From NCBI GenBank assembly GCA_963840885.1, contig CAWJAN010000006.1:116530-180529 (forward strand): a stretch of 64,000 nt of DNA. The letters run 5' to 3'. The notes beneath the pieces were generated by a model. That model ran no database searches. It was not told the origin of the DNA and worked only from the letters and a program-made list of their open reading frames with translations. Shown one piece after another: positions 6,717 to 35,939 of this stretch. Every line of letters begins with the position of its first letter. Positions within the stretch are counted from its first letter, which is position 1. This DNA is from an uncultured bacterium (GTDB lineage: Bacteria; Patescibacteriota; Minisyncoccia; Phycocordibacterales; GWA1-40-21). The position numbers were made by a program, and so were the translations under genes.

Positions 6717-7508
6717 ATGGAAAAAATAACCGCAAAAAAATCACTTGGACAGAATTTTCTCAGATCAAAAAAAGTTTTGTCGGAAATCGTAAATGCCGGA
6801 AAAATTTCTCCAAAAGATATCATACTTGAAATCGGCCCGGGCAAAGGCGCACTCACGGAAAGACTTCTTGAAACAGGGGTAAAAATAATCGCCGTGGAAA
6901 AAGATAGTAGGCTTATGGAATTTTTAAATGAAAAATTTGTAAATGAAATAAGATATGGAAGATTGGAGCTTGTTCACGAGGATATTTTGGAAACAAATTT
7001 AAATTCATTAAATTTGAAATCCGGAAATTTCAAATTGATCGCTAATATCCCTTATTACATAACCGGTCAGATTTTCAGGAAATTTTTGTCTGGAAATATC
7101 CAGCCGTCGAAAATAGTCATGCTCGTGCAAAAAGAAATCGCCGACAGGATTGTAGCTAGGGATGGAAAAGAAAGTCTGCTTTCTATTTCAGTAAAAATAT
7201 ATGGGGAACCGAAAAAAATAATGAAAGTGGATAAGGAAAATTTCTCCCCCGCTCCGAAAGTTGATTCCGCAATTTTGCTTGTGGATAATATTTCAAAAGA
7301 TTTTTTCAAAGAAATGGACGAAAATAAGTTTTTTGAATTGCTTAAGACAGGATTCGCGCATAAAAGAAAAATCCTGTCAGCAAATCTTAAAAATTTCAAC
7401 GGAAAAAACGTTAAGGATATATTTTTTGAGCTGAAAATACCGGAAAAAGCCCGCGCGGAAGACTTAAAACCGGAAGACTGGGAAAAATTGGCGGAAAAAT
7501 TGGCTTAA
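6717..7508 (+). CDS. rsmA: 16S rRNA (adenine1518/1519-N6)-dimethyltransferase RsmA/KsgA
   Basis: SLGQNFL...EIGPGKGALT...NIPYYIT motifs. Confidence 0.85.
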   Translation: MEKITAKKSLGQNFLRSKKVLSEIVNAGKISPKDIILEIGPGKGALTERLLETGVKIIAVEKDSRLMEFLNEKFVNEIRYGRLELVHEDILETNLNSLNLKSGNFKLIANIPYYITGQIFRKFLSGNIQPSKIVMLVQKEIADRIVARDGKESLLSISVKIYGEPKKIMKVDKENFSPAPKVDSAILLVDNISKDFFKEMDENKFFELLKTGFAHKRKILSANLKNFNGKNVKDIFFELKIPEKARAEDLKPEDWEKLAEKLA

Positions 7509-7588
7509 CCGGATAAAAAGGCTGGTTTTGCTGCACAAAATCCGTTTTTTATCTTTTAAAAGCCATTTTTGAATGTTATAATTATTGT

Positions 7589-8389
7589 GTGAATTACAGG
7601 AAATACTTGCCTTCAAAAAGATTTCTGACATCTTTTGCTATTGCAATAATGTTTGTTCTTATTGCCGTGGCGTTTACCTACAAAAATCCTACACCAAAAG
7701 GTGGGCTCGTCGTGGAGAATTCTTCCGCAAGCACAAGCTCTCTTTTGGATCAATTGTCTCCTGAAGAACAGCAGGTTGCTGAACAATATGAAAGCCTTAA
7801 TCCTACTGACAAGATGGCTAGGGACCTTATGTCAAACATAATAGCCACCCAGCCTGCAAACGGCAGCATGGACCAGGAAACTATTGATAATCTTGTTAAT
7901 GGGGCAGTGGGAGATATTCCACAGAAAAATTTCTCTACGAGCACGGATATATCCGATCTTAATCTTATACCTATAAATCCTGATACTTTCGGAAAAGACA
8001 TAACTGCATATGCAAACATATACTATGCCCAGACTGAAAAGCTCAGAAAAATCATGGGCCAGGACTTAAATCTGATAAACGACTATATCAATACGCAAAG
8101 CGATAAGGATAAGACCGATTTGGCTTCCATAGTGGTCTCATACAAAGATATAATAAGTAATCTTGTGCAAGTGCCTATACCTGCGACTGCCGATTCGCAA
8201 GGTGTCATAGATCATCTGAAGATAATAAACGACCTGGAGATATTGATTGATATAGATAATGATATAATAAATGCAAAATACGACAGCGTAGATGTAATAT
8301 CGGACTTGGCGCTTTACAGCCAGACATCGAATGACCTTTTAGATACCCTCGGCAATATAGACACTGTTCTGAAAATACAAAGAAACTAA
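7589..8389 (+). CDS. hypothetical membrane-anchored protein (first gene of T4SS-like cluster)
   Basis: N-terminal TM FAIAIMFVLIAVAFTY then hydrophilic domain; non-ATG start in ORF track. Confidence 0.35.
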   Translation: MNYRKYLPSKRFLTSFAIAIMFVLIAVAFTYKNPTPKGGLVVENSSASTSSLLDQLSPEEQQVAEQYESLNPTDKMARDLMSNIIATQPANGSMDQETIDNLVNGAVGDIPQKNFSTSTDISDLNLIPINPDTFGKDITAYANIYYAQTEKLRKIMGQDLNLINDYINTQSDKDKTDLASIVVSYKDIISNLVQVPIPATADSQGVIDHLKIINDLEILIDIDNDIINAKYDSVDVISDLALYSQTSNDLLDTLGNIDTVLKIQRN

Positions 8390-33528: not shown

Positions 33529-33770
33529 GTGGAATTCGGAAACGATTCAGCGTCAAGACAGCATTTGATTATTATCCGTTTCGGGATTAGTATGAATTTC
33601 AGAAATATCCGCTTACTCTAATAGGTGAGGCCCATAAGCTCTTATTACAGGGTTAATAAAGGCATTTCCATAAAACCCTTATTTTAAGCCATATTTTCTT
33701 ATGGTTACCCTCTTGACTTTTTAAAACATTAATATATAATATACAAGTAAATAAAAATCAATAAAAACAT

Positions 33771-34754
33771 ATGAAAAATTTAATAAATACAAACAAATAC
33801 GTTTTGGCACTCCCGGCACTCTTGCTTGTCGCTGTATTTACTGTTGCCAAGCCTGTCTTTGCTCAGGAATACGTAGACGGAGGCGACGGATATACGTATA
33901 TTGACGGTGGAAGCGGTACCTCATATGTGGATGGTGGAAACGGATATACTTATGTAGATGGAGGCAATGGTTATACTTATGTTGATGGCGGAAACGGATA
34001 CACTTATACTCCAACACCAACATACGCACCTGCTTATATTCCTTCTTCAAATCCCGTAACTGTTTATTCCGGTGGTTCAGATGTAACTTACTATTCTTCC
34101 CCTGATTCATATTATTATCCGGTTACACCAGGAGTCGTATATTCAGGCGGAGCTTATGGCGGAACACCGGCATCTCCATCAACATATACTTCAAGCGGAC
34201 AGACAACGGTTTATTCCGGAAGCGCTTCAGGAGGCAATCCTTCTTCAGGATATACATATTATTATCCGACAAACGGAACAACCGTTTCAAACGGAGCGGT
34301 TTATTCCGGAGTTCCTAATCAGGTTCTTGCTTATACCGATACCAGAAACCCGCAGCTCTCATCTGTTTATTTGAGCGATGTTCCTTATACAGGAGCAGGA
34401 GATGTCTTCAAGATTATTCTTTTTGCACTTGCACTTATATCATGGAGCTTGTTCGCCACATTTATGATCTTGAAAAGAAAAGCAAAAACCCAGCTTGCTG
34501 AAGTTGTAGTTTCAAACGGATCTGCAGAAAGAAAAGAAAATGAATTTGCAACTTTGCTTGATTCCGATTCAAGAGACATAGCTTCAATAGAAGCGCTCGC
34601 AAGAGAAAACAAAGTATTGCTTTCTACCGATGCCGCATCAAGGCTCGTAAAGATAGAAAGATTGAACGGAGTAAGGGCTTCCTATATACTCAAAAACGCT
34701 TCAAAGGGAGAATGGACAACCCTCGGAGAAAAGGATTTGGAAAAGTATCTCTAA
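33771..34754 (+). CDS. secreted repeat protein with C-terminal TM anchor and cytoplasmic tail
   Basis: Signal peptide; tandem DGGNGYTYV repeats; Y/S/G/T/P-rich; TM IILFALALISWSLFATFMIL near C-terminus. Confidence 0.45.
   Translation: MKNLINTNKYVLALPALLLVAVFTVAKPVFAQEYVDGGDGYTYIDGGSGTSYVDGGNGYTYVDGGNGYTYVDGGNGYTYTPTPTYAPAYIPSSNPVTVYSGGSDVTYYSSPDSYYYPVTPGVVYSGGAYGGTPASPSTYTSSGQTTVYSGSASGGNPSSGYTYYYPTNGTTVSNGAVYSGVPNQVLAYTDTRNPQLSSVYLSDVPYTGAGDVFKIILFALALISWSLFATFMILKRKAKTQLAEVVVSNGSAERKENEFATLLDSDSRDIASIEALARENKVLLSTDAASRLVKIERLNGVRASYILKNASKGEWTTLGEKDLEKYL
33880..34015 (+). repeat. about 5 tandem 27-nt coding repeats (DGG[ND]GYTY[VI])
   Basis: gatggaggcaatggttatacttatgtt-type units repeated in frame. 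Confidence 0.5.
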
Positions 34755-34763
34755 ATACAATAT

Positions 34764-34791
34764 AAAAACCCGCCGGAAAGGCGGGTTTTTA
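34764..34791 (+). terminator. rho-independent terminator
   Basis: aaaaa-cccgcc-ggaaa-ggcggg-ttttta. Confidence 0.6.
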
Positions 34792-34798
34792 TATTGTA

Positions 34799-34826
34799 TT
34801 GACAAATTCTTATAATAGTGTATACT
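34799..34826 (+). promoter_or_regulatory. sigma70-type promoter of GC-rich cassette 1
   Basis: TTGACA (34799-34804), 16 nt spacer, TATACT (34821-34826); RBS GGAGG 34861-34865. Confidence 0.5.
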
Positions 34827-34870
34827 TTATACCGAAGTTCATCACATAGTTTTTGTCCAAGGAGGACAAC

Positions 34871-35398
34871 ATGATCAATCACAGCACCGAACAGATTCAA
34901 GTGCCGTCCACCGTGGATGTCATCAAGATTCGCAGGGTCCTTTGGGTCCTGTTCGCGGTCATTTTGATCGCGATGTTCATAGGTTTCCTGTTTCATTTCC
35001 TGTTGCAAAAGTACTCGTTCAAAATCGAGGAAAAGGGGAATGGGCAGCCGGCGGCGGCGCAGAATTATGCTCCGCCTTCCTCAATGGTCCCGAACGATGC
35101 GCAAGCATCTGCCGGTACGCCGACAAAATTCGTAGCAGTCTTTACGAGCTACGAACAGCCGGTTAGGTTTGTGAACGGCACAACCATGCAGGATATCTGC
35201 AAGGTTTATCCGCCTGATTCAGGCAATGATTCGCGGGAAACGCGCGTCAGAGTTCACAACGACCAAGAAGCGAGAGGATATTTTCTTCTCGTCGAGGATA
35301 TGTCCGGAAGGGTTTTGGCGAAGCATGACTTCGACATGACTCTGAACGGCCGGTGGAAATGGTCCGTGAAAACTGACCAAACTGAACCGATGAGCTGA
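34871..35398 (+). CDS. hypothetical single-pass membrane protein, compositionally foreign (GC about 50%)
   Basis: ATG at 34871 is 5 nt after GGAGG; TM VLWVLFAVILIAMFIGFLFHFLL; Pro/Ala/Gln linker; about 90-aa C-terminal domain; G/C-ending codons unlike the neighbours. Confidence 0.55.
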   Translation: MINHSTEQIQVPSTVDVIKIRRVLWVLFAVILIAMFIGFLFHFLLQKYSFKIEEKGNGQPAAAQNYAPPSSMVPNDAQASAGTPTKFVAVFTSYEQPVRFVNGTTMQDICKVYPPDSGNDSRETRVRVHNDQEARGYFLLVEDMSGRVLAKHDFDMTLNGRWKWSVKTDQTEPMS

Positions 35399-35410
35399 GC
35401 TTCACCCAGG

Positions 35411-35488
35411 GCCTCGCAACCGTTAACACGGTTTGCGAGGCTCTTTTTATTTAGGCGGATTTTGCGAAGCAAAATCCGCCTATTTTTT
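35411..35488 (+). terminator. tandem pair of rho-independent terminators
   Basis: gcctcgcaaccg-ttaaca-cggtttgcgaggc + ctttttattt; then ggcggattttgc-gaa-gcaaaatccgcc + tatttttt. Confidence 0.6.
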
Positions 35489-35504
35489 GTGTTAAAATCT
35501 ATTT

Positions 35505-35939
35505 ATGGTAAAAATCAGCAAGAGCCTCGAAGAAACGCAGGCCGTAGCAAAGGATTTTCTGGAAAAGATAACGGAAATTTCCCATAATAAAGCGCTTATG
35601 GCTGGCCTTTATGGCGATTTGGGTTCCGGTAAAACGACTTTTACACAAGATGTCGCCAAAATTCTCGGAATAAACGATTTTGTCACGAGCCCGACTTATG
35701 TGATAGAAAAAGTATATAATATAAAATATAAATCTTTCGAAAAGTTTATACATATAGATTTATACAGGATTGAATCAGCGAAAGAATTATTGCATTTGAA
35801 TTGGAAGGAAATAACAGATAATCCGAAGAATTTGATTTTCATAGAATGGCCAGAAAAGATTTCGGAAATAATGCCGCAGGACAGCATAAAAATAAATTTT
35901 GAATTCATTTCCGAAGACAAAAGAAAAATAGAATATTAA
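35505..35939 (+). CDS. tsaE: tRNA threonylcarbamoyladenosine biosynthesis protein TsaE
   Basis: P-loop GDLGSGKTTF, ..VTSPTYVIEKVY.. Confidence 0.75.
   Translation: MVKISKSLEETQAVAKDFLEKITEISHNKALMAGLYGDLGSGKTTFTQDVAKILGINDFVTSPTYVIEKVYNIKYKSFEKFIHIDLYRIESAKELLHLNWKEITDNPKNLIFIEWPEKISEIMPQDSIKINFEFISEDKRKIEY

Follow-up and report, generated by a model that had tools for sequence, protein, structure and literature searches.

The question raised by this locus is whether a GC-rich orphan gene with nearly consensus expression signals was brought into its chromosome from elsewhere or belongs where it is found. The gene, X175, lies in a stretch of 64,000 nucleotides (the window), which is a Paceibacteria-type (Patescibacteria) chromosome. 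An initial annotation of the window had proposed a foreign origin, by horizontal acquisition, contamination, chimeric joining or engineering, and a possible partnership with a second cassette. The place that X175 occupies, between the gene rep327 and the gene for TsaE, is referred to below as the slot. The features of the locus are as follows:

33771-34754, plus strand: rep327, encoding a 327-aa repeat protein, the upstream conserved partner of the slot
34764-34791, plus strand: intrinsic terminator of rep327 (RNA fold -22.5 kcal/mol, z -6.4), conserved backbone
34799-34826, plus strand: slot promoter, TTGACA, 16-nt spacer, TATACT, with a TG-extended -10 box (TGTATACT)
34840-35443, plus strand: variable cassette (5' leader, CDS and first terminator), delimited by blastn breakpoints
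34861-34865, plus strand: Shine-Dalgarno GGAGG, 5 nt before the ATG, read from the sequence
34871-35398, plus strand: X175 CDS, encoding an orphan protein of 175 aa
35408-35444, plus strand: terminator 1 (-26.6 kcal/mol, z -7.5), belonging to the variable cassette
35452-35482, plus strand: terminator 2 (-22.4 kcal/mol, z -5.75), backbone hairpin GGCGGATTTTGC-GAA-GCAAAATCCGCC
35489-35497, plus strand: TG-extended -10 box (TGTTAAAAT) of the TsaE-PolA operon promoter, conserved backbone
35505-35939, plus strand: TsaE, the downstream flank (Pfam PF02367, E 5e-32)

The cassette and its product

X175 is an independent transcription unit with its own promoter, ribosome-binding site and hairpin terminators, and the initial annotation was accurate in these respects, including the placement of the unit right after the terminator of the upstream gene and the presence of two consecutive rho-independent terminators. 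The promoter matches the consensus at 11 of 12 positions, a quality reached by just three promoters across the 64 kb, and the Shine-Dalgarno context CAAGGAGGA occurs three times in the window versus 0.43 expected. Shuffled sequences never folded as well as the rep327 terminator, terminator 1 or terminator 2 (0/200 each). Judging from these signals, X175 is probably strongly expressed. The cassette is of the TTGACAAATT type.

The CDS has a GC content of 0.511 (GC1/GC2/GC3 = 0.517/0.386/0.631), compared with 0.413 for the whole window, 0.418 for the upstream gene and 0.336 for TsaE. The claim that the segment is richer in GC than its surroundings therefore stands, although the background is 41% and not 36% as proposed. 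Its GC3 of 0.63-0.65 is the highest among the 54-57 ORFs of the window, where the per-ORF mean is 0.41 (sd 0.06; z = +3.7 to +4.1). The excess is limited to the CDS, the leader being AT-rich. The unusual codon preferences are confirmed, five of the codons that had been singled out being used above window values: CCG (0.80 in X175 vs 0.42 in the background), GCG (0.67 vs 0.21), GTC (0.47 vs 0.28), ATC (0.56 vs 0.18) and AAG (0.56 vs 0.29). By codon fit within the window, cassette 2 is the worst and X175 the next worst. The GC skew of X175 is 0.056 and its AT skew is +0.04. In our assessment, its codon choice (CCG, GCG, CTG, AAG) resembles what is usual where genomic GC is roughly 50-55%, as would be the case for an imported gene.

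The 175-aa product consists of an N-terminus (residues 1-22) ending in KIRR, a transmembrane (TM) segment (23-45), a linker rich in P, A and Q (46-84) and a C-terminal domain (85-175). In a single-sequence AlphaFold model, the TM helix is predicted with an AF2 pLDDT of about 96, within a confident helix spanning residues 14-48, and the C-terminal 91 residues are predicted at low confidence (AF2 pLDDT <50) to be all-beta. X175 would presumably insert with its N-terminus in and its C-terminus out, and a beta-rich domain of ~90 aa would be shown at the cell surface on a flexible P/A/Q stalk.

Searches of Pfam, NCBIfam and PADLOC produced no family assignment for X175, the only match among 5.8e9 clustered proteins was the protein itself, and there were no matches in PDB sequences, in phage and plasmid collections (tblastn) or in viral and metagenome contigs, in agreement with its earlier description as an unassignable single-pass membrane protein. 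The sole extra match, obtained with HMMER against 1.84e9 representative proteins (P0002, E 5e-5), was judged spurious: it is a 1,883-aa repeat protein, and the match extends over 42 residues in six repeats. A weak match to the Zot-like/filamentous-phage pI family (PHROG 197; E 9e-4, 19.7 bits) involves profile positions 210-325, that is, the TM helix and linker only; the NTPase domain expected of this family is absent from the 175 residues, and tblastn found no match in 50,697 phage records. PilB is encoded nearby; nevertheless, X175 is not a type IV pilin or pseudopilin, as its N-terminus (MINHSTEQIQVPSTVDVIKIRRVLWVLF) is without the G-FTLIE class III signal motif. A true pilin with AFTLIELLVV was found elsewhere, in L004. 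Nor is X175 a lipoprotein: it is without a lipobox and its sole Cys is residue 110.

A conserved frame with variable contents

Comparison with related genomes places the cassette in a different light. The order of genes, with RuvB and PilB pointing left, followed by rep327, the slot, TsaE and PolA pointing right, is retained in relatives at 65-77% PolA identity, and the order PilB, slot, TsaE is retained down to about 54%. In every relative that keeps synteny the slot is occupied by one or two small ORFs, and the gap between rep327 and TsaE, 751 bp in the source genome, measures 830-1270 bp in relatives. These ORFs carry an N-terminal TM anchor in close relatives or a lipobox in distant ones (many with ...G-C), a TM helix at the N-terminus being seen in nearly all positional equivalents of X175, and the slot proteins of different genomes are mostly not alignable with each other. 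A second metagenome scan, based on TsaE, yielded just 9 distant loci. We found no description of the PilB/rep327-TsaE slot in the literature.

DNA homology to relatives reaches ~34839 and returns at ~35436-35444 (blastn against L081, L083, L084, L085, L086 and L001). The cassette between these points (~34840-35443) is unique to the source genome, without DNA similarity to any relative, the closest genome used for comparison having about 76% TsaE identity. On the left, the window aligns with L085 and L086 at 71-75% through 34826-34839, and the rep327 terminator falls within the stretch alignable to L085, L086 and L037. A promoter with TTGAC, a ~17-nt spacer and TAnnnT precedes all of the slot genes examined in relatives (22/22) and is TG-extended in 19 of them. 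On the right, terminator 1 is unlike the corresponding sequences of relatives. Terminator 2, located directly 5' of the TsaE promoter, is an element shared with L085, L081, L083, L001, L002 and L037, in which changes on both arms preserve the hairpin. The TGyTAAAAT block of the TsaE promoter is kept in the alignment and in the upstream regions of at least 12 relatives.

The upstream partner is conserved as well. In 14 relatives a single matching rep327 gene occupies this position (phmmer E 1e-28 to 1e-66). The protein, which has no Pfam family, contains a signal peptide, GGxGYTYVDGG repeats, a region rich in Y, G, S and T, and a TM helix that comes after a conserved ...VYLSDVPYTGAGDV motif; its cytoplasmic C-terminal domain is likewise conserved. 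It has a strong promoter of its own (33713-33740) and a low GC3 of 0.30; GC3 values of 0.16-0.32 are seen in AT-rich relatives and higher ones in GC-rich relatives.

The elevated GC content is equally widespread. The slot gene exceeds its neighbors in GC in 38 of 40 cases (mean +0.104; Wilcoxon p = 4.5e-11) and in GC3 in 37 of 40 (mean +0.166), having the top GC3 of the locus in 28 of 40; these ORFs were picked as the longest per gap, which slightly favors GC-rich sequence. The closest relatives behave alike, as seen in the slot genes of L081 (GC 0.58 and 0.52 vs 0.30-0.39), L086 (0.55 vs 0.46-0.47) and L084 (0.55 vs 0.44). Small ORFs from elsewhere in these loci that begin with a hydrophobic segment served as controls; the 72 of them gave a mean of -0.018, and the slot genes one of +0.135 (Mann-Whitney p = 1e-9). 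Excess GC and GC3 are specific to the slot position and clade-wide, and do not mark recent import into the source genome. Slot GC follows host GC only partially, with an intermediate slope of 0.49 (r 0.44), which is compatible with exchange from a shared pool and with a local process.

The contents of the slot turn over much faster than its flanks. Pairwise identities of homologous slot proteins compared with those of flanking proteins are 57 vs 93%, 45 vs 70-81%, 47 vs 73-78% and 27 vs 79-86%. The clearest case is the pair L002 and L055, where the flanks are 92-96% identical in DNA and TsaE is 98.6% identical in protein, and yet a segment of ~380 bp coding for the ectodomain is unalignable (GC 0.47 and 0.43 vs 0.36); near-identical flanks around such a segment show recombinational replacement. 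Two different cassettes stand in tandem in L081, each closing with the same ~42-nt terminator (2 mismatches and 2 single-base gaps), and in the tandem arrangements of L081 and L054 each cassette has its own promoter. One ectodomain type, family A (...SCGGLAG..FWVEV...FxWTV), is shared by the slot proteins L006, L086, L081b and L037b. In L037, a family-A copy located outside the slot (7369-7860) lacks the elevated GC, which suggests that position or expression context, and not ancestry, sets the composition.

X175 itself could not be linked to other slot proteins by local jackhmmer and phmmer searches, and hhalign gave probabilities of <1% outside the TM helix. It is not a member of family A (hhalign probability 0.2-0.3%; hmmsearch score below shuffled controls). 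One Smith-Waterman pairwise score, with a z of 4.85, came from 36 comparisons and was matched by 1 of 300 shuffles. As X175 has no sequence link to any slot protein, it is only its position and architecture that point to its putative descent in place. The view that it is a native variable gene at a fixed locus, mentioned in the initial annotation as the counterpart to a foreign insert, comes close to being borne out in that the slot is variable and filled in relatives; its occupants, however, are positional equivalents and not close homologues, so that cassette replacement by recombination from related bacteria may also have contributed.

Taken together, we consider it probable (about 0.62) that Paceibacteria-type Patescibacteria possess an old variable slot for a single gene, present across the clade, of which X175 is the local occupant, and that the slot encodes a strongly expressed, fast-turnover, membrane-anchored surface protein. 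The slot is framed on the left by a strong sigma-70 promoter with TG extension, preceded by the rep327 terminator, and on the right by the conserved hairpin terminator and the TsaE promoter; the leader, the CDS and its own terminator, lying between these frames, differ from genome to genome. Turnover proceeds via very fast divergence plus recombinational swapping of the ectodomain-coding part between the conserved flanks, with the slot protein presumably under diversifying pressure. Two possible sources of the GC3 excess are GC-biased gene conversion accompanying frequent recombination and selection acting on codons or on the mRNA.

Other explanations for the cassette

A single insertion, between rep327 and TsaE, of a cassette whose donor was an unrelated bacterium, phage or plasmid of higher GC would account for the GC3 of 0.63 vs 0.41 and the atypical codons, for an orphan without relatives in the clade and for a self-contained cassette with its own terminator. 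We consider it unlikely. The composition of X175 is atypical, as in a genomic island, but there is no net insertion, given the gap sizes and occupancy in relatives, the promoter and terminator 2 are backbone sequence, and neither integrase, transposase, tRNA nor direct repeat was found at the borders or in 30-40 kb (Pfam on 40 of 57 window ORFs). No tRNA or other Rfam family was found in the window, the phage, plasmid and viral collections contain no match, and a GC excess found in 38 of 40 cases cannot be explained by a single event. A one-off insert of foreign, chimeric, contaminant or engineered DNA is therefore not supported, the slot being occupied in all syntenic relatives. An artefact has next to no probability, whether by chimeric joining during assembly, by contamination or by engineering of an expression cassette. 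It might be suspected from the textbook-like promoter, RBS and double terminator and from assembly indel errors elsewhere, where dnaN, ruvB and a virB4-like gene are split; however, an independent Logan assembly of ERR12036782 contains a 12.7-kb contig on which gene order and product lengths (327, 175, 144, 823 aa...) are unchanged, both sides of the cassette run into orthologous backbone, and the layout of promoter, cassette and double hairpin recurs in environmental genomes from many unrelated studies. The proposed partnership with cassette 2 is also unsupported by our results: its product is soluble, it lies 23 kb away and its homologues are found at a different genomic position in other genomes. 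Promoter/RBS style and GC excess are all that X175 and cassette 2 have in common.

In AT-rich genomes an island of high GC is often the sign of an RNA gene, and several ORFs in other frames overlap X175, as might be expected if the segment were a structured RNA whose reading frame stays open fortuitously, GC-rich DNA having few stop codons. This is highly improbable, because there is no Rfam match across the ORF body even at E <= 10 (sub-threshold matches fall on the terminator hairpins and flanks), GC varies with codon position as in a coding sequence (GC3 0.63, GC1 0.52, GC2 0.39), GGAGG is correctly spaced and the N-terminal TM helix recurs among the positional equivalents. Diversity-generating retroelements (DGRs) are frequent in Patescibacteria, and localized hypermutation of this kind, scrambling the ectodomain in place, would fit variation that is extreme, local and concentrated in the C-terminal exposed domain. 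It is nonetheless very unlikely here: no template/variable repeat pair involving X175 exists within the 64-kb window, no reverse transcriptase was detected among the 40 of 57 window ORFs scanned with Pfam, adenine-specific depletion is not seen, and adenine-only mutagenesis would leave about 75% identity in the L002/L055 segment, which is wholly unalignable. Finally, X175 could be a native gene whose GC3 excess results from codon or mRNA selection for very high expression alone, without recombination or exchange. The strong promoter and RBS, the confinement of the excess to the CDS and the composition of the family-A copy outside the slot are in its favor, and yet it is quite unlikely, as rep327 has an equally strong promoter and an unusually low GC3, the preferred codons CCG, GCG, CTG and AAG differ from those that are usually optimal in low-GC bacteria, and the unalignable L002/L055 segment is left unexplained. 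There are no ribosomal-protein genes in the window.

Known variable loci and the meaning of the slot

Several known systems resemble the slot in part. In replacement-type flexible islands, O-antigen, capsule, S-layer and pilin-glycosylation loci are swapped by recombination in conserved flanks, and such islands are usually AT-richer than the genome. They share with the slot a fixed position, conserved flanks with non-homologous content between close relatives, an abrupt loss of similarity between near-identical backgrounds (L002 and L055 in our case) and envelope-exposed products, as predicted for slot proteins. Unlike the slot, a single gene of ~0.6 kb in a conserved promoter/terminator frame, they are multi-gene and biosynthetic; slot content is consistently GC-richer, and the slot is kept across relatives whose PolA proteins are only about 54-77% identical. 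Integron cassettes are similarly small, often orphan ORFs at a fixed place downstream of a resident promoter, hairpin-ended and possibly in tandem arrays, as in L081 and L054. However, no integrase adjoins the slot and no tyrosine recombinase is present among the 40 window ORFs scanned with Pfam; judging from the terminator fold, the hairpins consist of ordinary G+C stems with T-runs behind them and are not attC sites, and each tandem slot cassette has its own promoter.

The vls cassettes of Borrelia are about 49% GC compared with about 28.6% for the chromosome, a difference read as selectively maintained (PMC11499132). Like the slot, vlsE/vls has a variable surface-protein CDS much GC-richer than its low-GC genome and varies by recombination; unlike it, vls has arrays of silent donor cassettes (no partial copies of X175 occur in the 64-kb window), a GC skew of about 0.52 vs 0.056 in X175, and variants about 90% identical, whereas slot occupants are unalignable. 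Recombinant genes were reported to be higher in GC, especially GC3, in 11 of 14 groups (Lassalle et al. 2015, PMC4450053). The slot agrees with such recombination-associated enrichment (GC-biased gene conversion) in that third codon positions show the largest excess and the locus recombines, but its effect (+0.17 GC3 on average, +0.22 in the window) appears to us much larger than those differences across whole genomes and is confined to one gene, the adjacent rep327 having low GC3.

We also put forward, as a rather doubtful extension, that the slot is a dedicated Paceibacteria surface-diversification site, an expression frame, made up of the strong conserved promoter and a terminator acting as insulator, with recombinationally swapped non-homologous ectodomain cassettes, in which the persistent CDS-limited GC3 enrichment would be the footprint of diversification, left by gene conversion at high local intensity or by selection linked with it. 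If true, the slot would be a functional analogue of antigenic-variation expression sites in free-living episymbionts, with a different architecture. The persistence of a position-specific GC3 excess over deep divergence and against AT bias makes the slot a natural test case for biased gene conversion versus selection. For annotation it is also a caution: an orphan gene may be rich in GC and equipped with "perfect" expression signals without having been imported or engineered.

Patescibacteria spend their lives attached to other microbial cells. Diversifying pressure on the slot protein would most likely reflect a role in surface recognition, for example in host-cell contact or in evasion of phage or host defences. 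A fixed, probably strongly expressed slot with a lineage-specific small surface protein is a concrete candidate determinant of specificity or evasion, and its conserved flanks mean that it can be easily found and amplified across samples.

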